A DNA stretch of 64,000 nt from Chiloscyllium plagiosum (GCF_004010195.1 NC_057718.1:75213859-75277858); one strand, 5' to 3'; numbered from the stretch's first letter, positions 16,902 to 60,732 are shown. The notes: generated from the sequence alone by a model not told the origin. Program-made: numbers and translations.

Positions 16902-16970
16902 AACATCCTAAGGTTGTGATTAATGCTGTGGAATTGCAAATTATTCCATCTTTTTGAGTTCAGCAGAGAG

Positions 16971-18629: not shown

Positions 18630-18965
18630 TTTGCGGCAGAATCAGACAAGTAACATCGACGGCAGTTGTGGGGGCAGAAGTGGGAGCAACGGTGGTGGTT
18701 GTGGGGGCAGAAGTGATGTTAATGGTGGTGGGGGCGGAAGTGGTATTAACGGTGGTGGTTGTAGGGGTGGAAGTGATATTAACGGTGGTGGTTGTAGGGG
18801 TGGAAATGGTATTAACGGTGGTGGTTGTGGGGGTGGAAGTGGTATTAATGGTGGTGGTTGTAGGGGTGGAAGTGGTATTAACGGTGGTAGTTGTGGGGTG
18901 GAAGTGATGTTAATGGTGGTAGTTGTGGGAGTGAAAGTGATGTTAATGGTGGTGGTTGTGGGGAT
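18630..18965. repeat. G-rich minisatellite, ~30-bp unit, about 11 copies
   Basis: Repeated unit gtggaagtggtattaacggtggtggttgtaggg-like, with divergence toward both edges. Confidence 0.9.
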
Positions 18966-19796
18966 GGATGCTTCCGCAGCTGCACTGGCACTATCCCCCA
19001 CTTTTCCTCCACTACATCGATGACTTTATTGGCACTGCCTTGTGCTCCCTCAAGGAGCTTGAATAATTAATCCACTACACCCACACCTTCCACCTTAACC
19101 TCACATTCACCTGGACCATCTCCAACACCTCCCTTTCCGTTGGTGACTAACTCAACACTGACATCTATTTGAAACTCACTGACTCCCACAGCTACCTTGA
19201 CTATACCTCCTACCCTACTTCCTGTAAAAATGTAATCCCATACTCCCAATTCCTCCATCCCTGCCATATCTACCCCCAGGATGAGCAATTCCACTCCAGG
19301 ACATCCCAGATGTCCTCCTACTTCCAAGATCATAATTTCCCCTCCCCTGTAGTCAACAATGTCCTCAGTCACATCTCCTCTGTCCTTGATCCACCCCGCC
19401 CCCCCCCAACCCCAATAAGGATAGAATCCTCCTCGTCCTCACATTCTGCTGCACTAATCTCCAAATTCAGTGTATCATCCTCTGCTACCTATAGTCAGGC
19501 ACACCACCAAAAATATATTCCTTCCCCCCATCCCTATCTGCATTCCAAAGGGACTGTTCCCTCCGCGATTCCCCACCAACCCTCTCTTCACACCTCACAC
19601 GTCCCCCTGCCTCCGTGAAAGGTGAAAAACCTGTGCCTATACCTTCCCCCTCAATTCTGTCCAAGGCCCCAAAGGATCCTTCCACATCCGCCAGAGATTT
19701 GCTTGCATATCCTCAACCTCATTTACTGCATCTCTTGCTCGTGATGTGGTCTCTTCTGCATCAGAGAGACCAAGTGCAAACTTGCGAAATGGTTCA

Positions 19797-20440
19797 GAAC
19801 ATAGAACATAGAAACATACAGCACAGAACAGGCCCTTAGACCCACAATGTTGTGTCGAGACTTAATCTTAATGTAAAATATAATAAGGAGAAAGTGAGGA
19901 CTGCAGATGCTGGAAATCAGAGCTGAAAATGTGTTGCTGGAAAAGCGCAGCAGGTCAGGGAGCATCCATGGAGCAGGAGAATTGGCATTTCAGGCATAAG
20001 CCCTTCCTGAAGAAGGGCTCATGCCCAAAACATCAATTCTCCTGCTCCTTGGATGCTGCCTGACCTGCTGCACTTTTCCAGCAACACATTTTCAGCTCAG
20101 GGTAAAATATAATAACTTAACCTACGCACCCCTCAACTCACTGCTATCCATGTGCATGGCTAGCAGTTGCTTAAATGTCCCCAATGACTCTGCTTCCACC
20201 ACCACAGCTGGCAATGCATTCCATGCATTCACAACCCACTGCGTAAAGAAGTTACCTCTGATGTCTCCTTTATACCTTCCTCCTAATATCTTCAAACTAT
20301 GACTTCTCGTACCAGTCAATCCTGCCCTGGGGAAAAGTCTCTGGCTATTGACTTTATCTACTCCTCTCATTATTTTGTACACCTCGATTAGGTCTCGTCT
20401 CTTCCTCCTTCTCTCCAGAGAGAAAAGTCCGAGCTTAGGG
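19797..20440 (-). mobile_element. CR1-group LINE 3' end inserted in the PLE
   Basis: ORF 20122-20490 (LGLFSLERRRKRRDLIEVYKIMRG..FFTQWVVNAWNALP) and an agaacat repeat tail at 19797-19815. Confidence 0.9.
19887..20101. mobile_element. PLE-derived fold-back element, family A
   Basis: Inverted arms ~19920-20005 and ~20012-20098, one-sided tail 19888-19919, exact 14-bp TSD gtaaaatataataa (19873-19886 / 20102-20115). Confidence 0.9.
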
Positions 20441-21212
20441 AACATCTCTGGTCCGTACGCACCAACCAACCCCACCACCTTATCTTCCACCTCGAGTGCC
20501 TACAACCACACAGCCTCAACACTGAATTCACCAGTTTCTAAATCTCCCCATCCCAGATCCAACCCTCCGACTTGGCTCCGCCCTCTTGACCTGACCTATC
20601 TGTCCATCTTCCTCCCCACATATCCACTTCCCACTTCCCACCGACCTATCACAATCACCTCCCAACTTAGCCCACTTATTACTATCCCACATACCTTTCC
20701 TTTCACCACACACCCCATTTATTCCTCAGCTCCTTCCCCCTCCAGTCTTGATGAAGGATTCTGCCCAAAACATGGACTGTCTTGCTCCTTGGATGATGCT
20801 TGATTTGCTGTGCTTTTCCAGCTCTACACTTTACTGACTCTGACTTTCCAGCATCTGCAGTCCTCATTATTTCCTAACATCAGCACGTATGTCACAGACT
20901 TTCATCTTTGGGTGTCTGATGGTGGTCATAACAGATTGGATGTTGAATGCCCACATCGATGTCAGCCTTATGTGGTATGTAGCTTTCCAGGTGAGAAAAG
21001 ATTCAAATAGAGTGAGTAGGCAATGCAGGCTTCATGTAACATTATTGGTCTGGGAGGTTGGGGGTGTAAGAGCAGGTGAGGGATGATGATTCAGGCATTG
21101 GTGATAGTGCCAGAACATGAGTCGTGCTTGGTAGTGGGTGCAATTACAGAGTTACAGTGAATATTAGGGAGCAGAGAGAGCAGTGTTACACTGAACCTGG
21201 TGAAGTGGAGAA

Positions 21213-21535
21213 GGGCGGCACGATGGCACAGTGGTTAGCACTGCTGCCTCACAGCGCCAGAGACCTGGGTTCAATTCCCGCCTCAGGCGACTGACTGTGT
21301 GGAGTTTGCACGTCCTCCCCGTGTCTGCGTGGGTTTCCTCCGGGTGCTCCGGTTTCCTCCCACAGTCCAAACATGTGCGGGTCAGGTGAATTTGCCATCC
21401 TAAATTGCCCGTAGTGTTAGGTAAAGGGCAAATGTAGGGGTATGGCTGGGTTGCGCTTCGGCGGGTCGGTGTGGACTTGTTGGGCCGAAGGGCCTGTTTC
21501 CACACTGTAAGTAATCTAATCTAATCTAATCTAAT
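21213..21535 (+). mobile_element. HE1-type V-SINE (young, CpG-rich)
   Basis: Full A/B boxes, V-domain, (taatc)n tail at 21512-21535. Confidence 0.92.
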
Positions 21536-22040: not shown

Positions 22041-22701
22041 AAAAATAAGATTCTGGCCAATGTTTCTGAAAATTCTTTGCAATGATCAAATGGATCTTGT
22101 TCTGTTGATAATCCATAATCCATGAAATTATCAGAGCATTTGCATGAGTTTTTATTCATGATCTCTCTATTGAAAGTATTTGACATAAAGATAGTTGTGT
22201 GCCACTTTAGGTTATAATCATCAATTACATTGAGAGTATCATCTTATTGTTTGAGATTAATACGTCTTCATGACAAGTTGCCCACTTTTTCTTTTAACAT
22301 TGATAATATTTTAAGATCCACCTCAAAATCCAAATCTCGAAGAAGGATAATAAATATATTTTGGCAGCCTTCTGGAAGTATAACACCATTTTGAAGGGAT
22401 TTGTCGGACACACCAGTTATTTCTAGCACAGTCGACAGTATACACTCTTGTCTATGCCATCAGTACACGGGGAGATTGTGAAGCAGGATGATCTTGTTGT
22501 CACACAGCCTTACTGCCGATAGGGTGCCAAGATACCAAATTTGGACCATGCAGTTCACAGCATTGGATTTTTCAAGCATTCTTCAAAAAGTGCCATTGAC
22601 CAACAGCATCCTTTGATGAGAATCTAAGTAAATTGGATTTATATTCTCTGGAGGTTAGAATGTTATTACACCTCACTGAGTTAGTCTGCTGAAAATCAAG
22701 G

Positions 22702-22902
22702 TTTGGAGATGCCGGTTTTGGACTGGGGTGTACAAAGTTAAAAATCACACAACACCAGGTTATAGTCCAACAGGTTTAATTGGAAGCACACTAGCTTTCG
22801 GAGCGACGCTACTTCACCTGATGAAGGAGTGTTGCTCCGAAAACTAGTGTGCTTCCAATTAAACCTGTTGGACTATAACCTGGTGTTGTGTGATTTTAAC
22901 TT
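22702..22902. mobile_element. PLE-derived fold-back element, family B
   Basis: ~85-bp inverted arms centred near 22818, one-sided tail 22702-22732, exact 12-bp TSD tgaaaatcaagg (22690-22701 / 22903-22914). Confidence 0.9.
22818..22846 (+). ncRNA. Minimal hammerhead ribozyme motif (family B)
   Basis: CUGAUGA-A-GGAGU guu GCUCC-GAAA-ACUA with helix I cac/gug. The partner arm shows the intact GAAAGCUA version. Confidence 0.6.
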
Positions 22903-24769
22903 TGAAAATCAAGGCCATGCTATTTCCTGACTCATTCCAAAAGATAAAACTCTTCAAAAAAAAACAGAATTCCTCAATCGACCTGTCCTTTAGGTTGACA
23001 GAGACCATAGACCAGGTTTCTGCACTTGACATAAATTACCACCTATTGTAAGTAAATAGATTCTAACTGCTGATAAATAATTTTGACATATAGTTGTCTA
23101 TAGTTAAAACTCTAACCCTCCTATAAACTCCCCTTATGTATGTGGATGCCGTCAGGGTGAAAAACAGAAGTGTTATGGGTGGAGAGAAAGACTTGACGGC
23201 AGTTCATTGGTCCCTGTCCACTTTTGTGTTTGCAGAGATTATTTTTGTGCTGATCAGAATTTTCATTCTTGCTTCTCAAGATAATTTCACTTGCTTGCAG
23301 GAGACACAGGGTGATTGATTTCTACTTATGAAGGGTTTTGACTTATCAATAAGAAGTCACAGCTGACAGCAACTGGAAAGGAAATAAGTTGGCTCTATTC
23401 AGGCTTGTGATATGTTTTATTGCAGAGTAATAACAGCTGCTTCTCCTCCAGAGGTCTGCAAAACATTCACACTCCCCAAGCAGTTCGGCTATCTGGGAAT
23501 GAATCACATAGTTGTTAGCAGGCAGAAGGCCTTTGTCATCAATAGCCAACATGAGTTCACAGACCAATCAGCTGCTTGTTGCTAGCCCAAACTCCATTTG
23601 TACACACCCTTTGGCTCCAACTCACCTGTAAACCAGAATTCCACTACTGCTTGAGCAAGCAGCTGTGTAAATAGTTAGTGTTACAATTACAGTTAGTACA
23701 TGACAATTGGTACAACTATCTTTCAGGCATCCTTTGTTCCTAAAACAGATATTTTCCTATTTCACTATTCTAGGTTATGTGGTGAGTTCTTCAATTTGAT
23801 AGACAGCATTACCACATCATCTCAGAGACAGCAGAGGAGCAGGTGACCTGCCCACAAAAGAAGGAAGGGTAATGGGTATCAGCACAACATAAGCTGAGGT
23901 CCAGTATGACATCACAGAGTGAAAGACTCTTCCTGATACTCTTTGATAACTTGATGGCAGGCTTGTCTTTGGAGACAGTTCCTTGTTGACCAGCCTGGTA
24001 GCCTGCCAATGCAGCTACTGCACATGACCAGTTGGCATTGTCCTGTATGCACCTCATTAAAGTTTTGCACGCCACACCTACAGTAGAACCCAACTGTGCC
24101 CTCACCCTTCAGTGAGCGAGTAATGAACTATCCTTTTCCCTGTGGTTGGTGCAGTCCACATGTCCTTGATGACTGACCATGTATCGATTCTAACTCCTTC
24201 CTTGTTTCCAAGGTATGTGCTATGGCAGTATGTGAGTTGGTGTCAGTGATTATCATATCAACAGATGTGGCCTTTTCATTAGGGTTTTCTGTAACTTTTT
24301 TAATTTCTCCTTGAGCTGCTGTGACTGGGCAGTAGGCAAATGTTGGCTATCTAAAAGCATTAAATCTGAAGAGGAATATTGGGAGGTGGGAAAGGGTCTA
24401 AGGTTGGAATTATGATTCTCATTGTCACACAATCAGCAGCTTATAAGATGAGGGTATGCTGGAACTTGGGAAGGGTTGGAACATATCATGGCAATGCTAG
24501 ATTCTACAGTTTCCATAATAGCTGACCCCACGATGCTGAGAACATTCGCTGTCATAAGCTCCAAGACATGGAACTGTACTAGTTCTTCCTACTCCTATGT
24601 TTTGTTGTGTGTTTTCTTGTCCAACAAGAAACAAGGCAGAATGTTAGCGATTGTATGGCATTATGATTGGGTGATGTGCATATCATAACTGAATAGGAAA
24701 CAACACAAGGTGTGTGTGAAGCTGACAGTATATATTAAGAATGTAATGGTGAGGTGCAGTATCTAGATG

Positions 24770-25100
24770 CTAGGCTTCAATCATAAGTGCCAGAGAAGAC
24801 CATTGAATGAATGATGGAGATGTAATGCACTGGGCGGTGTTGGCAGCAGTAGCAAAGTAGGTAGGCGATATCATGTGAAAAAGGTTTTCCCTGACATTGA
24901 CCACCTGAGTGAGATCATTAGATTGACACTGCTGCCAGGTTTTTGGGTCTGGTCTCTGAGAAATTATCTCCCTGGTTATCTGCAGCCACTTTCTTCTGAG
25001 CATTGTCCTTGAGGGTGTCCTGGTCTCCCGCAGAACTGTGGGGCTTGTTTTCCTACCCATCTCCACCACTATTGCCTCCAGCGCATCGCCTATCAACTTG
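24770..25100 (-). pseudogene. Myb/SANT (trihelix) ORF remnant of a PIF/Harbinger-type element
   Basis: ALEAIVVEM...LRRKWLQITREI..PKTWQQCQSNDL. The surrounding 23760-25400 is probably the same element. Confidence 0.6.
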
Positions 25101-25454
25101 CATTCCTCTCCCCACCCAGATATTTATACTTATATCTTACAATTGCAGCAATATAATTCGGTGCAGTCTCCCTTTACAAAGGACAGCCTGCCTTTAAGAA
25201 CAGAATGTTGGCAGTGCCAACTGCTTTTGCCACAATAATATTCAGCCTCCTGCTAAACACTGAGGCAGCATGACGAGAATGCCAGCAGGGAGGTGCCTGC
25301 TCAGGCTCAAGTTAAATCATAATTAGGAGGAAACATTAAGTTTGTGTGCTGCCCTTGTAATATTAACTGTTTCACTAAATTGGCAGGGGTAAATGCAATT
25401 CTTAAGTTCCATTCCCTAAATATGGATAATAAAAGTTGTGACCCAGAATGTCTA

Positions 25455-25840
25455 AAGAACACCAGCTCCTCGGCTTTCCTAATGACCTATTCTTGCTGTT
25501 GGAAAACCCTTCGACCCATCGATCAACTTTGTTAACAACTTCCACCCCACCCTCATATTCCCTTGGTCTATCTCAGACACCTCCCTCCCCAGGCTTGACC
25601 TCTCTGTTTCCATATCCGGTGACTGTTTACAGACCCGACATTTACTACACACTCACAGACTCCCAAAGCTACCTGGATTACACTTGTTCCCAACCTGTAT
25701 CCTATAAAAACTATCCCATTTTCCTAATTCCTCCGTCCCCGTCGCATCTACTCTGATGAGATGTTCCACTCCCAAGCATCCTAGATGTCCGCCTATTTCA
25801 AACAGTGTTTTCTTCCCCCCTCTCATCCAGACAGCCTGGT
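25455..25840 (+). mobile_element. Penelope-like RT fragment
   Basis: ORF 25448: DIYYTLTDSQSYLDYTCSQPVSYKN. Confidence 0.75.
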
Positions 25841-25926
25841 GGAAGGTGTCCCTATGTGTACTGGTGGTATGTGTGTCAATACTCTGACACGTCTTACAGC
25901 AGCTGCCATGACAGGGTAAGGGTTTA

Positions 25927-26066
25927 GATCAGAGTGGTGCTGGAAAAGCACAGCAGGTCAGGCAGTATCCGAGGAGCAGGAAATTCGATGTTTCAGGCAA
26001 AAGCCACATTCCTGATGAAGGAATGTTGGACTATAACCTGGTGTTGTGTGATTTATAACTTTGTAC
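25927..26066. mobile_element. Chimeric PLE fold-back element (family A arm plus family B arm)
   Basis: 25927-26005 matches the left arms at 28050-28140 and 34897-34985. 26024-26066 matches the right arm at 22866-22904. The junction contains cctgatgaagga. Confidence 0.8.
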
Positions 26067-26460
26067 AGAACAACCTCAATTATCCGAATGAGGTGGGTGG
26101 GGAGTATTTTGTTTAGATTACTGGTCCATAAACAAAGGAAGTCATACCAAACATAAAACATAAAAAAGCATGTTTACTGAGGTTTTATTTCATTCAGTCG
26201 ATTAAATGCGTACAAACACTGGATATTGCTGAAAAATTCATGATATTTTACAAATAAAATTCATTGAGGTGGAGGCCAAATCCTCAAATATTCCTTAAAG
26301 CACTCAATGCATTTCCAGAGGAGATTTGAGGATCTAACGCAGTGCTCTACTGGAGAAAAACCTCAGTTATCTGAACATCAATTATCCAAACTTCAGACTT
26401 TCCGATCAAGATCTCAAGGTTCCATAAAAACATTACATCAAAGACATCCAATTGTCCGAG
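26063..26460. mobile_element. Possible pogo/Tigger-like DNA transposon remnant
   Basis: Starts ta-cag..aacctcaattatccgaa, with repeated attatcc/ttatctgaa submotifs at 26360-26460. No second TIR found. Confidence 0.35.
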
Positions 26461-28017: not shown

Positions 28018-28024
28018 TTCTATA

Positions 28025-28222
28025 GAAAGTGAGGACTGCAGATGCTGGAGATCAAAGTCGAGAGTGTGGTGCTAGAAAAGCAAACAGGCCAAGCAGGATG
28101 TAAAGAGCAGGAGAGTCGATGTTTCGAGCATAAGCCCTTCATCAGGAATGCCTGAAACATTGATTCTCCTGCTCCTTGGATGCTGCCTGGCCTGCTGTGC
28201 TTTTCCAGCACAACACTCTCGA
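28025..28222. mobile_element. PLE-derived fold-back element, family A
   Basis: Inverted arms ~28058-28131 and ~28148-28222, one-sided tail 28025-28057. Confidence 0.88.
28118..28145 (-). ncRNA. Minimal hammerhead ribozyme motif (family A)
   Basis: Minus strand CUGAUGA-A-GGGC uuau GCUC-GAAAC-AUC. Confidence 0.65.
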
Positions 28223-28286
28223 TTTAGAATAACTACAGCAACACCGATTAATACAAAATTGGATTTTAAAAGAGAAACAATGTATC

Positions 28287-29427: not shown

Positions 29428-29538
29428 TTTGGAGATGCCGGTGTTGGACTGGGGTGTACAAAGTTAAAAATCACAAAACACCAGGTTATAGTCCAACCTG
29501 TTGGACTATAACCTGGTGTTGTGTGATTTTTAACTTTG
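29428..29538. mobile_element. Internally deleted PLE fold-back element, family B
   Basis: 40-bp inverted arms 29458-29497 / 29500-29539. 12-bp TSD with one mismatch (tgtctaatttaa 29416-29427 / tgtctagtttaa 29537-29548). Confidence 0.88.
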
Positions 29539-29994
29539 TCTAGTTTAACACACAGAGACATGCATGACCTGAGAAAGACAATTTGGGTCCATCTGGTCAG
29601 TTTTGTCAAGAATAAACATTTGGCCAGGTATTATGTGTCATAACAATGGATCATAACCCAAGATTACTTATCAAATTTATTTCTCTTAAAAAAAATCTAG
29701 AAGGCAAGAATGGCTAATAAAATAAATACTGCAAATAGAAAGTACCTGTGTAAATCCTTGGAATTTCACACATATAAAATGTCAATGAAACTTCAAACAG
29801 AGAGATTTAAAAGGAAGAAGTGGAAGGAAAAGACTGATTATCACTCTTAATGAAGTGCTGTCCTCTGTGATTCATATCTCATACTTTAAATTCAAGTCAA
29901 TAGACCTGTTTGAGTTTTACTCTCTCAGCAATACACAAGAGCAGAGGTTAAAAGTCCCTGTATCCCAAGTCTCAGTGTTTAGGGGGGTTGATGT

Positions 29995-31416: not shown

Positions 31417-31748
31417 ATAGAATCCTTGCAGTATGGAAACAGGTCATTCGGTCCAACATTTGACTCTCCAAAGAGCATCCCACCTAGACCCATTTCCCCC
31501 AACCTTATCCTTGTATTGAATGCACCTAACCTACACATCCCTGAATATAATGGGCAATTTAGCATGGCCAATCAACCCAACCTGCACATCTTTGGATAGA
31601 GGGAGGAAACCGGAGCAGCTAGCAGGAACCCACACAGACACGTGGAGAATGTGCAAATTCCACACAGACAGTCACCCAAGGATGGAATCAAACCCGGGTC
31701 CCCAGCCCTGTGAGGCAGCAGTGCAAACCACTGAGCCACCATGCTGCT
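31417..31748 (-). mobile_element. HE1-type V-SINE (plus a short extra fragment at 31757-31822)
   Basis: Reverse complement of the 21213-21535 element. Confidence 0.9.
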
Positions 31749-31829
31749 CTTTAAACCGCTCATCTTTGGACTGTTTGAGGAAACCAGAGCACCCAAAGAG
31801 AACACATGCAGACATGGGGAGATCTTGAA

Positions 31830-32300
31830 TCCATTAGGGTCTAAATTGCCTTGAGTATTAGATGTTGTTTCTCATGCTGGCATTGAGCTTCATTGTAAAA
31901 CTGCACCTGGCCAAGAACATCAATGTTGGAGTGAGAATGAGGGGGAGGCAAAAAAGACAAGCAACCAGAAACTCAAGGTCAAACGTGCAGACTGAATGCA
32001 GGTGTTCCACAAAGTTATGATTGGGCCTATGTTTTATCTCCCCATTATAGATGGGGACATATCATGAGCATTGAATACAGTATACTAGCTTGAAAGGTTT
32101 ACAAATAAACTGCTATTTCACCTTTGAAGGAATGTTTGTGGCTTGAGCAGTCAAGAGCTTGGAGAAAAAGAGTGAGTTTTGCATTTCCTATGCTTGCATG
32201 GAAAGGTGCTTGGAAAGATTATTGGGATGACTGAGGACTGGCTGAAGAAGTGGTTCCTTTGGAATGTTGAAAGAAATAGGAAGATATCTTGATAGACATC
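31830..32300 (-). mobile_element. Old Penelope-like fragment (GIY-YIG region)
   Basis: Collinear resemblance to 4080-4270 and 56850-57290. Confidence 0.5.
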
Positions 32301-34894: not shown

Positions 34895-35068
34895 TAGAGT
34901 CAAAAAGTGTGGTGCTGGAAAAGCACAGCGGGTCAGGCAACATTCGAGGAGCAGGGGAGTCGATGTTTTGAGCATAAGCCCTTCATCAGGAATGCTGCCT
35001 GACCCGCTGTACTTTTCCAACACCACACCGTTTGACTCTGATCTCCAGCATTTGCAGTCCTTACTTTC
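34895..35068. mobile_element. PLE-derived fold-back element, family A
   Basis: Inverted arms 34896-34943 / 34992-35039, tail 35040-35068, 15-bp TSD with one mismatch (ttctatgttctataa 34880-34894 / ttctatgttgtataa 35069-35083). Confidence 0.9.
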
Positions 35069-35899
35069 TTCTATGTTGTATAACAGTGTCTACACTAGTG
35101 CAGGGTGTGCTCATAAAATGTGATAGTGTTAGAGGTTTGTGAACCTTTGGAATTCTGTACCACAGATGGTTGTGGAAGCTCAGTGTTTGAGTAGGTTTAA
35201 GATAGAGATTGGTACATTTCTGATGAGATATGGGGTTATGGAGTGGGGTGGGTGAAAACCATTGAAGTGTCTAATCTGCCATGGATATATTCAATTGCAT
35301 GGCAAGCTTGATAGGCTCATTGGCTTACTCCTGTTCCTACACTGGTCTTCATTTTCTTGCTGTGGGCCCAGAGGAAAGGGGAATGTTTGCTTTAGGATAG
35401 ATGCCTGCAGCTATGAAAGGCACAGAACAGAAAGTGAGAGTTTCTCTGGACAAATGGAAACATCTGCACAGGAAGCTACCCAATATTCCTCATACTGCAA
35501 CACATTGTCAGAGAAGGTGGAATGCACTATACCCCCTGAATGCCTACGTTGCCCTCTGTAATCACATCACATAATGTAAGGCTCATTGTGATCTCTCAGC
35601 TGGCTAAGGCAGACTGCTTCCTCTTTCACTATCCTTGCTGTCTCCAGCACTGTCTCCTTCATTGTGACAATGCCGTGGAATAGGGTTGTCAAATATTTTC
35701 ATAAGGGAAACCATCCAATATTCTCTTCGTGGGGTGGGGTGGGGGTGTTTGGTGGGAGACATAGAGGTAAGTGAGCACTTTTCAGGAAGATAAGCAACAG
35801 TTAGCATGCATTCAAGATTTATTACAAAAATGGAGGTTGGAAGCTGGGACTTTTCATCTTGGGATTTCATTCTCTCCCAGCCTGTTTTTCTGATAGAGT

Positions 35900-37114: not shown

Positions 37115-38925
37115 GGAGAAAGTGAGGACTGCAGATGCTGACGTACCAGAGTTGAAAAATGTGGTGCTGGAAAAACACAGCAGGCCAGGCAGCATCTGAG
37201 GGGCAGAAGAATCGACGTTTCGGGCATAAGCCCTTCTTCAGGCTGGTGTGCCAAGCGGGCTGAGATAAAAGGTAGAGGGGAGGGAATTTGGGGGAGGGTT
37301 GCTGGGAATACGATAGGTGGAAGGAGGTGAGGGTGATAGGCCGGAGAGGGGGTGGGGGCGGAGANNNNNNNNNNNNNNNNNNNNNNNNNNNNNNNNNNNN
37401 NNNNNNNNNNNNNNNNNNNNNNNNNNNNNNNNNNNNNNNNNNNNNNNNNNNNNNNNNNNNNNNNNNNNNNNNNNNNNNNNNNNNNNNNNNNNNNNNNNNN
37501 NNNNNNNNNNNNNNNNNNNNNNCAGGTGAATTTGCGACGGATATAGAAGGATCCATTGGGGCCTTGGAGGGAGGTGAGGGGGGAGGTGTAGGCGCAAGTT
37601 TTGCACTTTTTGCGGTTGCAGGGGAAGGTGCCAGGAGTGGAGGTTGGGTTGGTGGGGGGTGTGGACCTGACGAGGGAGTCACGGAGGGAGTGGTCTCTCC
37701 TGAATGCTGATAGGTGTGGAGAGGGAAATATATCGCTGGTGGTGGGGTCTGTCTGGAGGTGGTGGAAATGACGGGGGATGATACGATGTATCCGGAGGTT
37801 GGTGGGGTGGAAGGTGAGGACCAGTGGGGTTCTGTCCTGGTGGCGATTGGAGGTGCGGGGTTCAAGGGCAGAAGTGCGGGAAGTGGAGGAGATGCAGTAG
37901 AGAGTGTCGTCAACCACGTCGGATGGGAAATTGCGGTCTTTGAAGAAGGCCATTTGAGTTGTTTGGTAGTGGAATTAGTCCTCCTGGGAACAGATGCGGC
38001 AGAGGCGGAGGAATTGAGAATATGGGATGGCATTTTTACAGGGGGCAGGGTGGGAGGAGGTGTAATCTAGGTTGCTGTGGGAGTCGTTCGGTTTGTAGTA
38101 AATGTCTATGTTGAGTTGGTCACCCGAGGTAGAAATGGAGAGGTCTAGGAAGGGGAGGGAGGCGTCTGAGACGGTCCAGGTAAATTTGAGGATGGGGTGG
38201 AAGGTGTCAGTAAAGTGAACTGTTCAACCTCCTCGTGGGAGCATGAGGTAGTACCAATACAATCATTGATGTAGTGGAGGAAAAGGTGGGGGGGTGGTGC
38301 CAGTGTAGCTGTGGAAGATGGACTGTTCCACATATCCGATGAAGAGGCAGGCATAGCTGGGGCCCATGCGGGTGCCCATGGCTACTCCTTTGGTTTGGAG
38401 GAAGTGGGAGGATTGGAAGGAGAAGTTGTAAAGAGTAAGGACAAGTTCAGTCAGTCGAAGAAGGGTGTCAGTGGAAGGGTACTGGTTGGGCCAGTGGGAG
38501 AGGAAGAAGCAGAGGGCTTGGAGGCCTTTGTGATGGGGGATGGAAGTGTATAGGGACTGGAGGTCCATCGTGAAGATAAGGCGTTGGGGGCCGGGGAAGC
38601 GAAAATCATGGAAGAGGTGGAGGGCGTGGGTGGTGTCCCGAATGTAGGTGAGGAGTTCTTGGACTAAGGGGGGACAGGACCATGTCGAGGTATGCAGAGA
38701 TGAGTTCGGTGGGGCAGGAGCAGGCTGAGACAATGCGTCGGCCGGGGCAGTCAGGTTTGTGGATTTTGGGCAGGAGGTAGAAACGGGCGGTGCGGGGTTG
38801 TGGGACTATGAGGTTGGAGGCAGTGGATGGGAGATCCCCTGAGGTGATGAGGTTCTGGATGGTCTGGGAGATGATGGTTTGGTGGTGTGAGGTGGGGTCA
38901 TGGTCAAGGGGGCAGTAGGAGGAGA
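37115..38925 (-). mobile_element. Penelope-like element (Neptune type): RT, Cys linker and pLTR, 5'-truncated and frameshifted
   Basis: FYLLPKIHKPDCPGRRIVS, FTMDLQSLYTSIPH, QTKGVAMGTRMGPSYACLF, HYIND (decayed RYIDD) and linker FPCNRKKCKTC. The endonuclease falls in the gap 37365-37522. pLTR at 37115-37245. Confidence 0.93.
37214..37241 (-). ncRNA. Minimal hammerhead ribozyme motif, intact core (family A)
   Basis: Minus strand CUGAAGA-A-GGGC uuau GCCC-GAAAC-GUC, on the PLE sense strand. Confidence 0.75.
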
Positions 38926-40269: not shown

Positions 40270-41965
40270 ACAGAGGCTGGGGTGTGAGGTTAGGTAACAG
40301 ACATGAAAGAATATGTTCAGGCTTTAAAATGATTGAATTCAATGCTAAGTCCTGAAAGCTGCAGGGTCCCCAAGCAGACATGCTGACATGAGAGGGAAGA
40401 GAAACATATGTCTGGTGATAGCATCCCACTGAATGTAACAGATAATGGCGGCTTATGATCCTTTGGATGTTAATGCTGGTGGGGTGGAAAGTGAGGACCA
40501 GGGAATGCCGTGGGAGGGAAGAGAAGGAAGAGAGCAGAAATGCTGGAAATAGGTAGGACATAGCTGAGGGTTGTTACAACCACAGCGGCAGGAAATCTTC
40601 AGTTGAGGAAAAAGATCGATATTTTCCTTTCAGGAAAAGTGGCATCATGAGAACAGATATGGTGGAGACAGAGGAACTGAGACAATTTGATCGAGTCCTT
40701 CCAGAAAGCAAGATGTCGGGGTAACTGTGACAGTCGTAGAATCCCTATGGTATGGAAACAAGCCATTAGGTCCAACCAGTCCACACCAACCCTCTGAAGA
40801 GTAACCCACCAGACCCAATTCCCTACATTTACCCCTTATAAATGAACTTAACCGATACATCCATGAACTCTATAGGCAATTTAGCATGGTTAATTCACCT
40901 AACCTGCACATCTTTGGATTGTGGGAGGAAACCCATGCAGATAGAGGGAGAATGTGCAAACTCCACACAGACAGTGACATGAGGCTGGAATTACACCCAG
41001 GTCCCTGGTGCTGTGAGGCAGCAGTGCTAACAATTGAGTCATTGTGCCACTGGTAAGTTTGCAGTGGATTTTGCTAGCAGTCTATCTCCAGAAATGGAAA
41101 TAGAGATTTTGAGGAAGGGAAGGGAGAAAATAGACCAAGTGAAAGGGACAGCAAGGAAGAAATTGGAGTCAAAATTTGTAAATCTTTCCAATTCTGTATG
41201 GGGAAGTGAAGCAGCACTTATGATGTATTGGAAAATGAATTGTGGAGAAGATCGGATTAGGACTGGAACGACGAACCTCCCAAACAAAGAGACCGGCCCC
41301 AGGTGGTTACCCTCGCTATACCTTTGATCTGAGGAAATTAAAGGAGATAAAGGAAAAAATGTTCAAAGTGAGGATGAGCTCAGCCAGGCAAAGGAAGGTG
41401 GTAATCAGCGGCAATGGATCAGAGCGTTTTTCCAGGAAGAAGTGGGAAGCCTGAAGACTATCTAGTGGGGGAATGGATGTGTAAAGGGATTGTACATCCA
41501 TGGTAAAGAGGAGGCAGATGTTGCCCACAAACTGGAAATTTTGAAACTAATGTAAAGCGACAAAAGAATTGCGATATAAATGGGAAGGCACTGGACAAGG
41601 GATGAAAAAAATTAACTCAAGGTAGGAAGTGATCAGTTCTGTGGAGTTGAAATGGGCAGAAACAATTGGTCTACCCAGGTAGCCCTGTTTATGAATTTTG
41701 GGAAGAAGGTAGAAATGGCTGTACGGAGCCAGGGAGAGTGGGGCAGAATCACCTGATAATCAGATAAAATGAGATTAGTGGCTGCTATGGGCACAATAAC
41801 CTAGGTTTGATGGTAGTGTCATGGTTCATGGAGAATTAGGAAGTGGTATCCCAGAAATCGCATTCAGCCTCCACAACATATAAGTTAATATGCAGAAAAT
41901 AACAGTTTTACAACAGTCAGTAGGCTTGTTTACACAGTTAGGGTTGGATCCAAGGATATGGAGTG
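40270..41965 (-). mobile_element. Older Penelope-like RT fragment interrupted by a SINE
   Basis: LFTMDVQSLYTSIP (ORF 41316-41528), LVLTFHPTSINIQRII (ORF 40265-40561) and FYLLPKIHKQ near 41690-41715. Confidence 0.85.
40737..41049 (-). mobile_element. HE1-type V-SINE
   Basis: Reverse complement of an HE1 head, core and tail. Confidence 0.9.
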
Positions 41966-41974
41966 CTTCCCTTT

Positions 41975-42572
41975 TAACTTGCTGATTTTGTACAAGGCAC
42001 TAGTTAGACCACAGCTGGAATACTGTGAACAGATTTGGTCTCTTTAGTTATAGAAAGATATACTGACATTGGAAGCAATTTAGTGAAGGCACATTAGGTT
42101 GATTCCAGGTATGGAGGGGTTTTCTTTTGAGGTGGGGATGAGTAGATTGGGCTTAAACTCATTGAGGTTTAGGAGAATAAAAGGACACCTTATTGAAACA
42201 TGGTAAGATTCTTAGAAGACTTGACAGGGTAGATATGGAAAAGTCATTTTCCTCTGACAGACAGTCTTGGACCAGGGGGCATAATTTCAGAATAAGTAGC
42301 CACATATTTAAATCAGAGATTAAAAGAAATATCCTCTCTCTGAGGGTGGTGAATCTGTGATATTCTTTACCACACAGGGCTCTTGGGGCTGTGTCATTGA
42401 GTATATTCAAGGCTAGATAGTTTGTAATCAGTAAGGGAATCAACAATTATTGGGATAAGACAAGCAAGTGGAGTTGAGGCTTATGAGATCAGCCATGATC
42501 TCATGAAATGGCACAGCAGACTCAATGGGCTGAAAGTCAACCTCTGCTTCTATATCTAAAGGTCTCATGGTC
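41975..42572 (+). mobile_element. CR1-group LINE 3' fragment
   Basis: LYKALVRPQLEYCEQIW motif and a CR1 3' UTR. Confidence 0.8.
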
Positions 42573-45270: not shown

Positions 45271-45952
45271 GAGAGCATTGCAGTACTGGAGAAAAAAGGG
45301 ATGCTTCAAGTGTTCAAGGACAAAATCAATTTAGCTGGATTGAGGGAATAAGATAGGTACAATTTCATTGCTCAATGTAATACACAGACAGCAGCTGATG
45401 GGAAAGCTGTAAAAGGAATAGATTTGCCTGAAATTACAGAGCTATGTAAACATCATAGAATAGTTCCAATGGAGTATTTTAATTAAATGTAAATTGATTG
45501 GTTAGTGGTGGTGTCAGTGGTAATGAGTGACAAGTGTTCTCCAATAGTGTTTAGAACAATTTTCCACAACAATGACTGTACTAGCCAGCAAGAAAGGGGG
45601 CTGCTACTTTTGGTCCTTGGGAATGAGGTGGGTCAAATAGATCAAGTTACAGTGGGGAAACATTTATGAGGCAGTGATTATTGTATTATAAGGTTTGAGA
45701 TTATGGTAAAAATGGCATTGGTCAATCCAGAGTAAAAACAATCAACTGCTGGAGAAGTGACTTCAATGGAGCATGTCCAGAGTCAGGCTGGAATCAAAGA
45801 TGGGGCAGGAAAAGCAAAAACACTTGAACAATGAACTAGCTTCAAAGTTGTTATGGTTTGGACACAGTCAATATATATTCCCTCAACAAGGAAAGGCAGG
45901 ACAAACAAATCCAGAGCTCCCTGAATGATGAACAAAGTTAAAGAAGAAAACT

Positions 45953-46126
45953 AGATTAGATTCCCTAAAGTGTGGAAACAGGTCATTTAGCCCAACAAAT
46001 CCACACTGACACTCTGAAGAGTGACCCACCCAGACTAATTTCCTCTACACTTACCCCTGACTAATGCATCTAACACTATGGGCGATTTAGCATGGCCAAG
46101 TCACCTGATCTGCACATCTTTGGACA
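45953..46126 (-). mobile_element. 5'-truncated HE1-type SINE
   Basis: tagattagattccc tail and the 3' half of an HE1 body. Confidence 0.85.
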
Positions 46127-48859: not shown

Positions 48860-49105
48860 TACTGGAAGGTACTAGAGCAACTCAGCAAATACGGCAGCCT
48901 CTGTTAAAAGAGAAACAGAGTTAATATTTCAAATCTTATATGACTCTTCTTCAGAAGTGAAGTTCTGTAGAAGTTTGAAAGAAGAGTCATACCAGACTCA
49001 AAGTTGGCATTGTTTCTCTCTACACAAATGCTGCCAATCCTGCTGAGTTTCTCCAGCATTCTTTGTGTTTGCTTCAGACTTCCAGCATCATCATTATTTG
49101 CTTTT
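48860..49105. mobile_element. Older PLE fold-back element, family C
   Basis: Imperfect inverted arms around ~48965 (tatgactcttcttc / gaaagaagagtcata; ctcagca / tgctgag) with a right-side tail. Confidence 0.7.
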
Positions 49106-49839: not shown

Positions 49840-52222
49840 AATTCAGAGACTTGAAGTTTGTCATAGTTGCCAGCAAACCTCACCAAAGCCAAGAGGGACA
49901 ACCTTTGGTTAGGGATTTGCACCACAGAATTAAATGAGGGGTTACACTAGCGATTTTCCTGTCCTCTGGGACCCTCCCTGACTCCAGTGATACCTGAAAG
50001 ATCACTACGAAAGCCTCCACTATCTAATCAGCTGTCTCCTTCAAAGCTCAAGGGCAGAGGTGGGGAACCTGCAGGCTTTAGGCCACATGCGGCCTTCTAG
50101 GCCATTGTGTGTGGCCTTTTGAATGAATCCAAATTTTGCAGAACAAATCTTTTATTTTTTATTAATATGTTTTTTGTCCTTTATTATTTTTATTTTAATC
50201 TTAAAATGAATGTATGTAAAATACCAGAGAGTAAAACAAAATTCAACAAAATAATCCTCACAGATTGACCGCCACAATTAAAAAATTGATAAATCATAAG
50301 GGCTATTTTGACACCTGCTATGTTCATGATTTAGTTACAATGCAACTCTAGAATGTACGTTATCTTCCCCGCCTGACTGGTGCCACTACCACCCGAGGCT
50401 GGTTGGCGAGAGCCTGTGGGTATCCAGTACGCCAGTCAAGATATAGAATTGAAGAATATGTAATTGAAGTTTCTTGGATGTGGCCTTATTGGATTACAAC
50501 TAACATAATGCAGCCTTCCAACATGAAAAGGTTCCCCACCTCTGCTCTAGGGTGTAGCCCATCTGGTCCAGGTGATTTTTCCACTTTCAGACCTTTCAGT
50601 TTTTCTAGCACCTTCTCCTTGGTGATGGCCTCCATACTCATCTCTGCCCCCAACTCTCTTGAATTTTTGTGATATTACATTTGTCTTCCACCGTGAAGAA
50701 TGATACAAAGTACTTATTCAGTTCCTCACCCATCTTTGCTCCCCATTATTACTTCTCCAGGGTCATGTTCCAGTAGCCCAGTGACCCATTTTGCCTGTCT
50801 TTTGCCCTTTATATATCTCAAGAAACTCTTGCAATCTTTTTTAATATTACTGGCTAGTTTACCCTCATATTTAATCTTCTCTCTCCTTATTTCTTTCTTC
50901 TTTGTCCTCTGTTGTAGGCTTCCCAATCTCTGGTGTCCCACTGCCTTTCACCACATTATTTGTTTTCTCTTTTGCTTTTATGCTATCCATGACTTTCCTG
51001 GTTGCCTCCTCCTCCCTTTAGTATGCTTCTTTTTCCTCAGGATGAATCTCTACTGTGTCTCACGGATTACTCCCACAAACCCCTGCCACTGCTGTTTCCT
51101 GCTGGGCTCCTCTCCCAGTCAATTCTGGTCAGCTCCTCCCTCATGCCTCTGTAATTGCCTTTACTTAACTATAACACCATTACATCTGATTCTACATTCT
51201 CCTTCTCAAATTGCAAAGTAAATTTGATCATGTTATGATCACTGCTTCAGAAGGGTTCCGTCACCTTAAGCTCCCTTATCAAGTCCGCCTCATTATACAA
51301 TACTAAATCCAGTATTGCCTGTTCCCTAGTGAGGTACATCACAAGCTGCTCGCAAAAGACATCTCAGAGACATTCCACAAATTCGTTTTCTTGCAATCCA
51401 CTACCCACCTGATTTTCCCAATTCACCTGCATATTGAAATCCCCCATGATCACTGTAACATTGACTTTATTACTTGCCTTTTCTATCTCTTGGTGAATCT
51501 TGTGCCCCAAATCCTGACTACTGTTTGGAGGCCTGTAAATAATTCCTGTTATGGTATTTTTCACCTTTGCGGTTCTTCAACTCTACCCACACAGATTCTA
51601 CATCATCTGACCCTACATCATTTCTTGCTACTGATTTAATTTCATTTCTTACTAATATGTCAACCCCACCCCATCTGCCCACCTGCCTTTTTTTAATAAG
51701 GTTTGTATCCTTGGATATTTAGTTCCAAGTCCTGATCCCCTTGCGGTGATGCCTACCACATCATACTTGCCAATTTTGATCTGTGCCACAAGCTCATTTA
51801 CCCCTGTGTGCATTTAGATACAACACCTTCAGTCCTGTATTAACCATCCCTCTTCTCATTATCGTTTGTTTATCCAGTATGTATGCAGTTTCATTCCTAA
51901 CCCTTTCCAAACACTTTGTCCTATTTTGTGTACTGGAGACTTTAATAACTTCTCCTGAGTTCTCCTTTCTTTTCATTTTCTTTCATATTTTTCCATGCAG
52001 TTGAATCCACCCCACAGATGTTAATCTGTAGCTTTGCTCTCCATTGGTTATCATACTTCTTGGAGTTTTGCCCTTCCCTTCCCCCCACTTGCTAGTGTAA
52101 AGTCCTGTTGATCACTCTATTTATCATTTTTGCTGGATCACTGGTCCCAGTTTGGTTCAGGTGGAGACTGTCCCAACAATGCAGATCCCTCCTCTTCCAA
52201 TACTGGTGCCAGTGCCCCAGTC
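49840..52222 (-). mobile_element. CR1-group LINE (end of ORF1, endonuclease, linker)
   Basis: LKVLYLNA (ORF 51794), GIIYRPPNS..IMGDFN (ORF 51364) and LASNIKKDCKSFLRYIKGKR (ORF 50726). Confidence 0.9.
50055..50544. mobile_element. hAT (Charlie-type) MITE
   Basis: Perfect 16-bp TIR cagaggtggggaacct (50055-50070 / 50529-50544) and 8-bp TSD ctcaaggg / ctctaggg. Confidence 0.92.
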
Positions 52223-52924
52223 AAGGTAACTGTTAGTCAGTGGGTTTTAGTAGAAATTGGGGGCAAGCCTGTCCCCAGAAATGGAAACAAAGATGTCAAG
52301 GAAGGGAAGGGAAGAGGCAGAGATGGACTAGGTGAAGGTGAGAGGAAGGTGAAAATTGGAAGCAAAATTGATACATTTTTCCAGTTCCAGACCAAGCAGG
52401 GAAGCAGACTCAATAATATCATCGATATACCAGGGAAACTGTTGAGGGGAGGCTTCCAAGTAAGACTGGAGCAAGGAATGCTTTACAAACCCCACAAAGT
52501 GACAGGTTTAACTGGAGCCCATGTGGGTACTCACTGCCACACTTTGATCTGAAGAAAGTGAGAGGAATTAAAACAGAAGTTGTTCAGGTGAGGATGAGCT
52601 CAGCCAGGTGGAGTAGGACAGTGGTGGATAGGGATGGTTCCGGCCTTCTTTCTCATGAGCTGGGGTCTGTAGTGGGGAGATCCCTACAATAGATAAGATT
52701 GGTGACATCTGTGGACACGATGGCCTGATGCTGGATGATAGGGGCATGAGAGATAGGAGGAGGTGTCCTAAAGCTGGTACTCAGCCTCCTCAATGTACAG
52801 GTCAGTACACCAGACAGCAAGTCAGCAGGCTTGATTACAAAGTCAGGATTAGATTTGAGAACATTGGGTGAAGAATGTTTAGAGAGAGAGGTTCAAATGG
52901 GTGAGGCAGGGTGAGAAATTAAGG

Positions 52925-54000
52925 TGCTGAAAATGTGTTGCTGGAAAAGCGCAGNNNNNNNNNNNNNNNNNNNNNNNNNNNNNNNNNNNNNNNNNNNNNN
53001 NNNNNNNNNNNNNNNNNNNNNNNNNNNNNNNNNNNNNNNNNNNNNNNNNNNNNNNNNNNNNNNNNNNNNNNNNNNNNNNNNNNNNNNNNNNNNNNNNNNN
53101 NNNNNNNNNNNNNNNNNNNNNNNNNNNNNNNNNNNNNNNNNNNNNNNNNNNNNNNNNNNNNNNNNNNNNNNNNNNNNNNNNNNNNNNNNNNNNNNNNNNN
53201 NNNNNNNNNNNNNNNNNNNNNNNNNNNNNNNNNNNNNNNNNNNNNNNNNNNNNNNNNNNNNNNNNNNNNNNNNNNNNNNNNNNNNNNNNNNNNNNNNNNN
53301 NNNNNNNAGTCCTTCTTCAGGAATGAGGAAAGTGTGTCCAGCAGGCTAAGATAAAAGGTAGGGAGGAGGGACTTGGGGGAGGGAGTCGGACATGTGGTAG
53401 GTGGGAAGAGGTCAAGGTGAGGGTGATAGGTCAGACTGGGGTGGGGGCGGAGAGGTCAGGAAGAAGATTGCAGGTTAGGAAGGCGGTGCTGAGTTCGAGG
53501 GATTTGACTGAGACAAGGTGGGGGGAGGGGAAATGAGGAAACTGGAGAAATCTGAGTTCATCCCTTGTGGTTGGAGGGTTCCTAGGCGGAAGATGAGGCG
53601 CTCTTCCTCCAACCGTCGTGTTGCAATGGTCTGGTGATGGAGGAGTCCAAGGACCTGCATGTCCTTGGTGGAGTGGGAGGGGGAGTTGAAGTGTTGAGCC
53701 ACGGGGTTCCTCAACGTTTCCAGAAAAAACTTTCATGTACTTACCCCCACACTCTGGGTTCCTCAACTTTTCCAGACTTGACCTCCTTCCACCTATCGCA
53801 TTTCCAACGCCCCTCCCCCAAGTCCCTCCTCCCTACCTTTTATCTTAGCCTGCTGGACACACTTTCCTCATTCCTGAAGAAGGGCTTATGCCCGAAACAT
53901 CGATTCTCCTGCTCCTTGGATGCTGCCTGACCTGCTGCGCTTTTCTAGTAACACATTTTCAGCTCTGATCTCCAGCATCTGCAGTCCTCACTTTCTCCCC
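52925..54000. mobile_element. Large young PLE fold-back element, family A, with a GIY-YIG C-terminal fragment
   Basis: Exact 13-bp TSD tgagaaattaagg (52912-52924 / 54001-54013), inverted arms, ORF 53475-53714 (PVAQHFNSPSHS..RRLEEERLIFRLGTLQPQGMN). Contains the gap 52955-53307. Confidence 0.9.
53874..53901 (+). ncRNA. Minimal hammerhead ribozyme motif (family A)
   Basis: CUGAAGA-A-GGGC uuau GCCC-GAAAC-AUC. Confidence 0.7.
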
Positions 54001-54229
54001 TGAGAAATTAAGGCGACCAATGCTACACCGACAGTTCCTGATGAGCAGGTCAAGTGCTGGTAAAAGGCCAGAGAGAGAGGTTCAGGTGGAGAGAGAGTAT
54101 TGGAGGTGGGTGAAGGGATCTGTGGGATGCAGAGAGGCTTCCTGTCCACCGAAATGGGCACAAAGGTGAAGGCAGCAGAAGAAGAGTTCAAAGTCAATGT
54201 CATGTTCCAGATATCCTAACTGCTGTGTG

Positions 54230-56105: not shown

Positions 56106-56495
56106 CAGATTCCCAGAAATGGTTTTACTTTTTTATATTATTGCACTTTAGCTATTGGAGTACTGTATATACATTTATATTACTGTAAGGACTTTCAGAA
56201 GGACATGACTGGGCAGACATATTGAACAGAATATTAACTGCTGAATGGAGCTGGGTCAGAGAGTGGAACTGAATGGGAAACACAACATGATCCTGCCCAC
56301 GTCCAGGTTTGACCCAACTTTTGAGCAGCTGTCAGGAAAAATCATAAAAATATGCAAGTATGAAATGAGCTATGAATTTAATCATGCATTCTGACTTTAA
56401 CAACCAATGCACAAATTCCTGGAGTTCTCTGTATCTTACCAGGATCACAGAGGTTAATGCTCAGAGGGCAGAGATTGCTTAATAAAACTGCTAGA

Positions 56496-57349
56496 GACAA
56501 AGAAACTGCAGATGATGGAATCCAAAGTAGATAGGCAGGAGGCTGGAAGAACACAGCAAGCCAGGCAGCATCATGCGGGAGAGAAGTCGACGTTTCAGGT
56601 GTAACCCTTCTTCAGGCCTGGGGGTGGGTGCAGGGGGAGCTGCAAATAAAGGGGGTGGCAGGGACAGGGTGGTGAAGTGGGGTTAGGTGAAAACAGGTAG
56701 AGGGTATGACCTGGTTGGTCAATGAAAGGAATTAATCCAGTTGGTGGAAGGGAGCAGTGGAAGGGAGGGTAGGGGCGCTGGGAAGGGAGTCAGGGGATGG
56801 GAAGGGAGATTATTTGAAATTTGAGAATTCAATGTTGAGTCCTCCCGGCTGTAGGCTGCCCAGGCGGAAGATGGGATGTTGTTCCTCCAATTTGCTGTTT
56901 GGTTCATTGTGGAAATGGAGGAGGCCAAGGATGGTCATGTTGGAAAGGGATCGGGAAGGGGAATTAACATGGGCGGTGACTGGGAGGTCCGGTCAGCCTC
57001 TGCGGGCCCTGCTGAGATGTTCAGTGAAATATTCCCTAAATTTATGTTTGCTCTCCCCAATGGAGAGAAGACCACAAAGGGAGCAACTGATGTTGTAAAC
57101 TAGGTTGAAAGAGAGGCAGGTGAACCCCTGTTTCACCTGGAAGGACTGCTTGGGACCCTGGATGGCAGTGAGGGGGGTGGCGTACTGGCAGGTTTTGCAT
57201 CTTTTCGGGTTGCAGGGGAAGGTACCTGGGGGTTTGGGGTGATTGATGGGGTGAGTGGTGCGAACCAAGGATCATTGACGGGAATGGTCAATGATTAACC
57301 TCCTGATGTTGCCTGACTTGCTGTGTTCTTCCAGCCTCATGCCTGTCTA
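56496..57349 (-). mobile_element. Penelope-like element 3' portion (Cys linker and GIY-YIG) with an inverted 5' pLTR
   Basis: ORF 56993-57268 (FPCNPKRCKTC..FTCLSFNLVYNISCSLCGLLSIGES..FTEHL). pLTR at 56496-56615 and an inverted copy at 57300-57349. Confidence 0.9.
56589..56615 (-). ncRNA. Minimal hammerhead ribozyme motif, intact core
   Basis: Minus strand CUGAAGA-A-GGGU uac ACCU-GAAAC-GUC. Confidence 0.7.
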
Positions 57350-58085: not shown

Positions 58086-58171
58086 GATAAAGCACGGTAT
58101 GTGTTTAAGAGACTGATATCCATATGTTGAATTAGATAGCAAAAGACTTTCAGAGATTATCAAGTGTTTTA

Positions 58172-60649: not shown

Positions 60650-60732
60650 TCAGAAGTCAAGGCACCAAGTTATAGTCCAATAGGCTTATTTGATATCACA
60701 AGCTTTTGGTGCGCTGCACCTTCATCAAGTGA
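60650..60732 (-). mobile_element. PLE pLTR fragment, family B
   Basis: caccaagttatagtccaa..agcttttggtgcgctgcaccttcatca, similar to 22750-22820. Confidence 0.6.

Follow-up and report, generated by a model that had tools for sequence, protein, structure and literature searches.

The window, by which we mean the whole 64,000-nt stretch of Chiloscyllium plagiosum DNA analysed here, carries minimal type I hammerheads at the ends of Penelope-like elements (PLEs). The copies and related units are as follows, with start points counted from C3 of the hammerhead core.

37214-37241, minus strand: minimal type I hammerhead of lineage A; intact core, helix II GGGC/GCCC, helix III ACGU, cut triplet GUC; helix I reduced to 1 contiguous pair
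37115-38923, minus strand: 5'-truncated decayed PLE with RT, thumb, CxxxxCxxC linker and an N gap (37365-37522) over the endonuclease; ends in the hammerhead and then a 124-nt end module
52926-54000: lineage A insertion inside an older PLE ORF; long minus copy with endonuclease remnant 53538-53708, plus an inverted short arm that begins 97 nt before C3; hammerhead 53874-53901 on the plus strand, ACAU; 13-bp target duplication
28024-28225: head-to-head lineage A stub; hammerhead 28118-28145 on the minus strand, ACAU; minus arm from -5, plus arm from +14; no clear target duplication
34896-35069: head-to-head lineage A stub; decayed core (G12A, ACAU), start -5; target duplication 14/15 bp
19887-20101: head-to-head lineage A stub; decayed core at 20007 on the plus strand, starts -3 and +5; 14-bp target duplication
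20715-20877, plus strand: older lineage A end; decayed core (C3U, G12A), 4-bp helix I AGUC/GACU; likely the end of PLE ORF remnant 18986-19771
61679-61761, minus strand: solo lineage A stub from +15, without 5' core
56480-57349: subfamily A2; minus copy with endonuclease remnant 56813-57334, plus a short inverted arm from +42; hammerhead 56589-56615 with intact core, ACGU and broken helix I
63747-63776, minus strand: hammerhead of subfamily C with intact core; helix I AGUU/AGCU of 4 bp; helix III AUGU, paired by wobbles only
48872-49056: head-to-head subfamily C stub; intact core 48927-48954 on the minus strand, AUAU, probably from double CpG decay
7285-7427, plus strand: solo subfamily C stub; begins at the core, decayed; 8-bp target duplication
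6651-6725, minus strand: old stub of subfamily C that keeps its core letters but has lost helix II
22700-22904: lineage B palindrome; plus arm with the hammerhead 22818-22846 (AACU); minus arm has GAAAGCUA and a 33-nt tail, without CUGAUGA; 12-bp target duplication
60646-60733, minus strand: solo lineage B stub; AGCU, C3U and G12A, start -5; helix II GGUGC/GCACC (a double change against GGAGC/GCUCC), helix I UCAC/GUGA; target duplication 11/12 bp
29428-29539: lineage B head-to-head stub without hammerhead; starts +44 and +49; target duplication 11/12 bp

Motif descriptor and element identity

All six principal cores proposed by a sequence-only reading of this DNA (beginning at 37214, 56589, 53874, 28118, 22818 and 63747) lie where it placed them, and a pattern scan found its layout of CUGANGA, extra A, helix II and GAAA in each. 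Its helix II variants (GGGC/GCCC, GGGU/ACCU and GGAGU/GCUCC) read exactly as written, the arm GAAAGCTA is present at 22792-22799(-), and the decayed copies it mentioned were also found, with C3 at 6725(-), 7286(+), 20007(+), 20748(+), 34989(-) and 60728(-). A strict hammerhead descriptor (CUGANGA, extra A, GAAA, and a helix II that begins with G and has 4 bp or more) gave 8 matches in the window, well beyond chance: 200 dinucleotide shuffles, which disregard kinship among repeat copies, averaged 0.035 matches with a maximum of 3, and 0/200 reached 8. Seven of the eight belong to repeat families, while the match at 48718(+) lies outside every repeat family found and is probably a chance resemblance. 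The intact-core copy at 48927-48954(-) is additional to those listed earlier. An Rfam scan of the window at up to E 10 returned 17 matches, with no hammerhead covariance model in the list; the lineage B palindrome (22776-22862) gave the top hit, MIR845_1, at 45.5 bits against a cut-off of 81.

Thirteen window copies span the core. CUGANGA and GAAA are both intact in 8 of them, the others deviating by 1-2 letters, mostly at CpG; the extra A between 9 and 10.1 is present in 13/13, and the first helix II pair (10.1-11.1) is GC in 9, GU in 3 and AU in 1. The window motifs resemble the minimal hammerheads (min-HHR) of metazoan PLEs described by Cervera and de la Pena (2014, PMC4209133) in CUGANGA, the extra nucleotide after 9, G10.1-C11.1, the absence of loop 3, palindromic 15.2/16.2, short helix I, a preponderance of solo copies of truncated PLEs, opposite-strand pairs and many families per genome. 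Among min-HHR traits, the type I core CUGANGA...GAAA-N-N-U-H, a covarying helix I of 2-5 bp and the PLE terminal-repeat location are present in the window, and absence of loop 3 together with a palindrome holds at the family level. They differ in that helix II is short here (4-5 bp), helix I of the young family A is weak, with just 2 contiguous pairs, and the 56 rows of Fig. S3 in that paper hold no cartilaginous fish (PMC4209133).

The earlier attribution to PLEs was confirmed by ORF remnants upstream, target duplications, head-to-head arms and a tail of ~33 nt. The 37214 motif terminates a decayed same-strand ORF in which an RT fragment (RVT_1, E 1.2e-4, below cut-off) is followed by a linker. 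The best relatives of this RT fragment are Chiloscyllium punctatum proteins (84% and 81% identical), followed by ray and shark proteins, and the linker CNRKKCKTC within 37523-37974(-) aligns to protein P0034 at E 2e-24. P0034 and P0018 are full-length proteins with RVT_1 and GIY-YIG above cut-off, and the window remnants match both. In tblastn searches the remnant at 37115-38923(-) is 72-86% identical to a further protein, P0001, and PLE ORF remnants also lie upstream of the 56589, 53308(-) and 20748 motifs. The linker pattern CX2-5CxxC, matched by 24/24 homologs over 850 aa, is a feature of the Neptune and Nematis clades (Craig et al. 2021, PMC8557442). By linker and architecture, the window's PLEs appear to resemble the EN+ Neptune/Nematis type. 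They share with such elements the order RT then GIY-YIG, the CX2-5CxxC linker, 5' truncation, an adjacent inverted head-to-head copy, a 30-40 bp tail at one end and target duplications, and differ in that most window insertions measure just 90-200 bp (PMC8557442; Arkhipova et al. 2013, PMC3846280). Lineage B would be a PLE by architecture and by its metagenome relative L056 (below), the window itself holding no lineage B ORF.

Several further PLE features were seen. An older PLE ORF (52196-52883 and 53998-54195(-)) is interrupted by the lineage A insertion at 52926-54000. More ORF remnants lie at 40442-41975(-), 25522-25871(+) and 31990-32121(-), one of them only 39% identical to P0001, and no hammerhead was found behind these three. 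Both N gaps, 37365-37522 and 52955-53307, fall within lineage A PLE insertions. A conserved ATG stands ~46 nt after C3 at 53920(+), 37195(-) and 56572(-), and opens MLPDLL or MLPGLL; in the 53874 copy the frame remains open up to the module end. The peptide had no match among 120 proteins compared, and the ATG is probably where the next ORF copy starts. Several short arms begin at +42 to +49, near this ATG. The Poseidon element PAc of Anolis likewise places its hammerhead close to where the next ORF copy begins and has two tail-defining initiation sites, but it belongs to another clade, is described as lacking the linker motif, and has its start at stem II, where the window's candidate ATG lies ~46 nt after C3 (PMC11167929).

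The window also holds a SINE-like family of ~300-350 bp, with at least 7 copies on both strands, and a 33-bp minisatellite of 9 copies (18663-18996) that adjoins a PLE RT remnant. The SINE-like copies lie at:
662-958, 16968-17318, 21209-21525, 31418-31751, 40732-41050, 45952-46120 and 58171-58463

Lineages and the helix III palindrome

Three repeat families had been proposed, and this division gave way to two lineages. BLAST within the window shows that A, A2 and C have 80-120 nt of downstream sequence in common (E 3e-4 to 4e-3 for A against C, 1e-17 for A against A2), none of which is found in B, and the sole A-B cross-match is 18 nt of the core itself. Since there are only two lineages, the ACGU/AGCU difference in the window is a single event and not statistical covariation. 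The claim that a palindromic helix III covaries therefore stands between lineages, where the palindrome differs yet stays palindromic, and falls as a statistical statement about the window.

The assignment of one palindrome to each family likewise needs qualification. ACGU is present in the 37214 and 56589 copies but absent from the other 4/6 principal copies, of which 53874 and 28118 read ACAU, 63747 AUGU and 22818 AACU. AGCU is carried by the 60710 copy, the 22792 arm and L056, whereas the principal copy of lineage B, 22818, reads AACU. No complete hammerhead of the window has AGCU, as the 22792 arm is without CUGAUGA and the 60710 copy has C3U and G12A. Individually, 5/13 window copies are palindromic at helix III.

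Compensatory changes were found in helices I and II among the window copies, and helix III shows no compensation within a family. With the 13 copies registered by structure, 49/52 helix II cells are paired (equalled by 0/5000 shuffles) and 36/52 helix I cells (equalled by 5/5000); these counts come from related copies, and the shuffle fractions are not probabilities. Helix I pairs as AGUC/GACU, AGUU/AGCU, UCAC/GUGA or UUCUC/GAGAA, for example, and its base has changed doubly from C-G to U-A (A against C) and from U-A to A-U (A against B). Helix II has undergone a double change from A-U to U-A inside lineage B.

Independent material came from a metagenome pattern scan that left helix III open, with 120 of about 200 loci listed. 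These loci are mostly a coral-type family; none is a clear copy of the window's families, and one, L056, is a clear relative of lineage B. It matches the 60710 copy at 74% over 95 nt, its core is intact, and it combines AGCU with a helix I of 5 bp. The ORF end upstream of L056 resembles a PLE endonuclease end. Because L056 is an independent locus that has AGCU with an intact core, AGCU is, on these sequences, a true lineage trait of B. A lineage B pattern scan of viral contigs gave 0 matches. The coral-type family, whose motif matches the Acropora row of Fig. S3 (PMC4209133), yielded 90 distinct copies after exclusion of pattern misfits and duplicates from the 120 of about 200 loci; at 15.2/16.2 these read CG in 64, CA in 13, TG in 9, CT in 2, AG in 1 and GG in 1, and never GC or TA. 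Mismatches within the family thus reflect CpG decay and not compensation.

The swap between ACGU and AGCU palindromes is already published (Cervera and de la Pena 2014, PMC4209133). By our recount, 41 of the 56 motifs in Fig. S3 of that paper are without loop 3, with CG in 29, GC in 5, UA in 5, AU in 1 and CA in 1 at 15.2/16.2, that is, ACGU 29, AGCU 5, AUAU 5, AAUU 1 and ACAU 1, and all four Watson-Crick pairs occur in the list. The accompanying text states that the palindrome emerged though absent from the descriptor, and proposes dimers (PMC4209133). The earlier proposal that the covariation reflects selection for dimeric self-cleavage accordingly retains the palindrome kept between lineages; it is not new, and the selection concerns active master elements.

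Three side observations belong here. Five metagenome loci (L012, L065, L077, L097 and L099) form another hammerhead family, with helix II GGAGC/GCUCC as in lineage B and mostly a 6-nt palindrome AACGUU, which amounts to an extended helix III. By eye, the sequence after the cut triplet in 60646-60733(-) resembles the turtle row of Cervera Fig. S3, also AGCU (PMC4209133), and lineage B may be common to turtles as well. At 25931-26067 there is an apparent chimera of a lineage A minus arm, a folded-back piece of an A hammerhead 5' half and a plus-strand lineage B tail, with no clear target duplication, consistent with a template switch between lineages or a nested insertion.

Insertion boundaries and decay of the copies

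The short copies show head-to-head arms. Target duplications of 11-14 matching bp flank 6/14 units tested and one of 8 bp flanks one more, while random pairs reached at least 11 in 1/291. Lineage A copies end near +124 or at +80 to +98 on the 3' side, and the two arms of lineage B differ in length by ~33 nt. Published descriptions of PLE insertions include inverted arms, palindromic junctions and a tail of 30-40 bp (PMC8557442, PMC3846280), and two internal initiation sites account for the tail (PMC11167929).

The 5' ends gather at the front edge of the motif. Among 26 window arms mapped (ends approximate, junctions placed by eye, two old C arms excluded as unmappable), 14 begin between -10 and +15 of C3, 5 at +42 to +49 and 1 near the cut site, while 6 extend at least 31 nt upstream. 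Public runs mapped onto 53780-54005, which covers family A only, at 82% likeness gave 123,182 contigs of X1, 115,440 contigs of X10 (another organism) and 3,667 RNA reads of X21. Depth climbs steeply over 53868-53883, and loose ends with unrelated flanks accumulate at 53870 (-4; 534 in X1, 544 in X10, 176 in X21) without a common upstream sequence (agreement 0.31-0.40). No pile of molecule starts or ends was seen anywhere, including the cut site 53901/53902 (+28), although poly(A) single-cell reads need not keep 5'-OH ends. Copies that carry the whole motif must have had uncleaved RNA as template; in vitro, the whole uncleaved motif is copied into DNA (Frangieh et al. 2024, PMC11167929). A splice acceptor at the -4 boundary was considered and is not supported: four copies (37214, 56589, 63747 and 20748) have AG just before helix I, the young A copies lack it, and the loose ends have no upstream sequence in common.

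Only 37214, 56589 and 48927 (3/13) pass all six core tests, retaining both boxes, helix II, the palindrome, U16.1 and H17; their contiguous helix I pairs number 1, 1 and 2, so none reaches 3. G12 is the general base, which G12>A removes (PMC6155905), while C11.1>T leaves a wobble pair. The two changes occur at 10.4% (C11.1>T) and 10.7% (G12>A) in X1, 13.3% and 13.5% in X10, and 21.5% and 23.8% in the RNA of X21, and a CpG outside the ribozyme is changed at 9.5% in X1. The catalytic G12 is lost at the neutral CpG rate in inserted copies and is not protected. Most copies in the window carry mutations and would, by prediction, no longer cut RNA; the inserted copies are likely inactive and eroding without selection.

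Position 16.2 departs from this pattern. It is G in 63-72% of mapped family A depth and not G in ~36% of mapped DNA depth, three times the neighbouring CpG rates, where depths are sums over contigs rather than copy numbers and the reference itself has A at 16.2. The window A arms read CA in 7, TG in 2 and CG in 1 at 15.2/16.2. Together, the excess of non-G and the CA-rich arms suggest that an ACAU subfamily, which is not palindromic, may have spread in its own right; this may weaken strict palindrome selection in family A, even in masters. No C>G change at 4% or more appears across the mapped family A stretch in X1 or X10 among the differences listed, and therefore there is no AGCU form within family A.

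Readings of the motif's role

We hold, at a probability of roughly 0.85, that the motifs are type I minimal hammerheads in the terminal repeats of endonuclease-bearing PLEs, present here as truncated ends of two lineages whose copies are likely dead. In active masters a loopless 4-nt palindrome would be kept because it lets two copies of one tandem transcript join by helix III, each completing the core of the other, probably aided by the element's protein. Priming of reverse transcription by that protein would take place at either of two internal positions, ~90 and 124 nt past the core; most cDNAs would end at or just inside the hammerhead 5' edge, the usual template being uncleaved RNA, and after insertion CpG deamination would erode C11.1-G12 and C15.2-G16.2. 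Published tests found the minimal monomer inactive and dimers weak (PMC4209133), the Anolis motif cleaved only with the element's protein (PMC11167929), and 1/9 Xenopus dimer elements was active (10.64898/2026.07.22.740005). Cofolding speaks against dimer pairing: the computed double-hammerhead fold is far less stable than the best cofold, at -5.7 against -25.3 kcal/mol for the 37214 homodimer and -21.1 against -30.9 kcal/mol for L056.

That the resemblance to hammerheads arose by chance in repeat DNA is ruled out by conservation across lineages: two lineages that cannot be aligned have the core, the extra A, G10.1-C11.1, the palindrome and helix I in common, and published PLEs ranging from cnidarians to reptiles carry the same motif (PMC4209133), which outweighs the silence of the Rfam hammerhead models and the shuffles' disregard of kinship. 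The sequence-only reading had also expected a host transcript crossing the window to carry many ribozyme halves, such that dispersed copies would pair within or between host transcripts and cut host RNA. The two boxes retained by 8/13 copies, the abundance of family A in RNA on both strands (the X21 reads) and the ability of AUGU to pair through wobbles could be cited for this, but we regard it as very improbable, as most copies are broken, G12 is lost as readily as its CpG partner, and a Pfam scan of 232 non-repeat ORFs, all of 55 aa or more, revealed no host gene, matching only part of a LINE endonuclease and, weakly, ABC_membrane_2 (E 6e-4, below cut-off). For 22900-25900 no RNA run was listed as containing the stretch. 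Same-strand cores stand 7.2-31 kb apart. Whole palindromic insertions fold into long hairpins of -100 to -150 kcal/mol, in which the probability of the G10.1-C11.1 pair is 0.000 in 3/4 and 0.29 in the fourth; with local flanks only it is 0.94 for 37214, 0.91 for 53874 and 0.000 for 56589. The ACGU and AGCU helices are predicted at -3.1 and -3.9 kcal/mol against +2.8 for ACAU, and ACGU with AGCU forms 2/4 pairs at 0.0 kcal/mol, so that cross-lineage dimers are predicted not to form. The published tests cited above, among them the requirement of the Anolis motif for its protein (PMC11167929), also speak against host cutting.

A separate non-autonomous element is conceivable, in which a unit of ~128 nt from hammerhead to tail is released by dimeric cleavage of short head-to-tail tandems in the manner of a retrozyme. 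Head-to-tail joints from 53998 to 53870-53873, with units of 126-129 nt that would place two cores ~128 nt apart, were counted in 88 X1 contigs and 61 X10 contigs, and PLE-repeat-derived non-LTR retrozymes have been reported, one of them chondrichthyan (10.64898/2026.07.22.740005). The window copies resemble these in being short, non-coding, PLE-derived type I units that would need dimers, and differ in being dispersed monomers or inverted pairs with minimal rather than canonical motifs and no tandem array (PMC7229834; 10.64898/2026.07.22.740005). We judge this reading unlikely: the 88 joints stand among all the mapped contigs of X1 with unknown letters in between, their position is the motif's 5' edge, whereas monomers released by cleavage would begin at the cut site, no head-to-tail tandem of hammerhead units exists within the window, and partial tandems are a normal PLE product (PMC8557442).

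A stronger contender, though still the lesser possibility, is that the motif survives chiefly for its structure or as a boundary signal (for protein binding, transcript start or RT arrest), cleavage being incidental or vestigial in these lineages. The piling of 5' ends at -4 instead of +28, the starts of the window arms, the ACAU excess and the weak helix I of young family A would all fit, as would the Anolis experiments, where hammerhead mutants left in vitro insertion unaffected and no RNA-seq ends were seen at the site (PMC11167929). Against it stand the catalytic core letters and palindrome kept across lineages, the 40/41 loopless published motifs that are palindromic (PMC4209133), and the cleavage of the Anolis motif with protein, including the C3/G8 rescue (PMC11167929). 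Such a role can be combined with the tandem-dimer explanation that we prefer.

The role of hammerheads in PLEs has been called unclear (PMC8557442), and one study found cleavage dispensable in vitro (PMC11167929). A literature search outside subscription journals, Repbase and Dfam turned up no report of PLE hammerheads in sharks, nor of 5' ends that accumulate at the motif. The window reveals no new ribozyme, new covariation or host function. More speculatively, and with considerable doubt, the shark PLE hammerhead might mark the 5' boundary of copied RNA at -4, with an ACAU subfamily that spread without a working helix III and ACGU/AGCU acting as a lineage lock. Were the lock real, co-resident PLE lineages would be kept from cleaving each other's RNA, and the very high copy number would provide the best natural data set on the purpose of PLE hammerheads. 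The window adds a cartilaginous-fish example to the 2014 list (PMC4209133), together with two usable facts: the loss of G12 at the neutral CpG rate, and 5' ends that coincide with the motif's front edge instead of its cut site.
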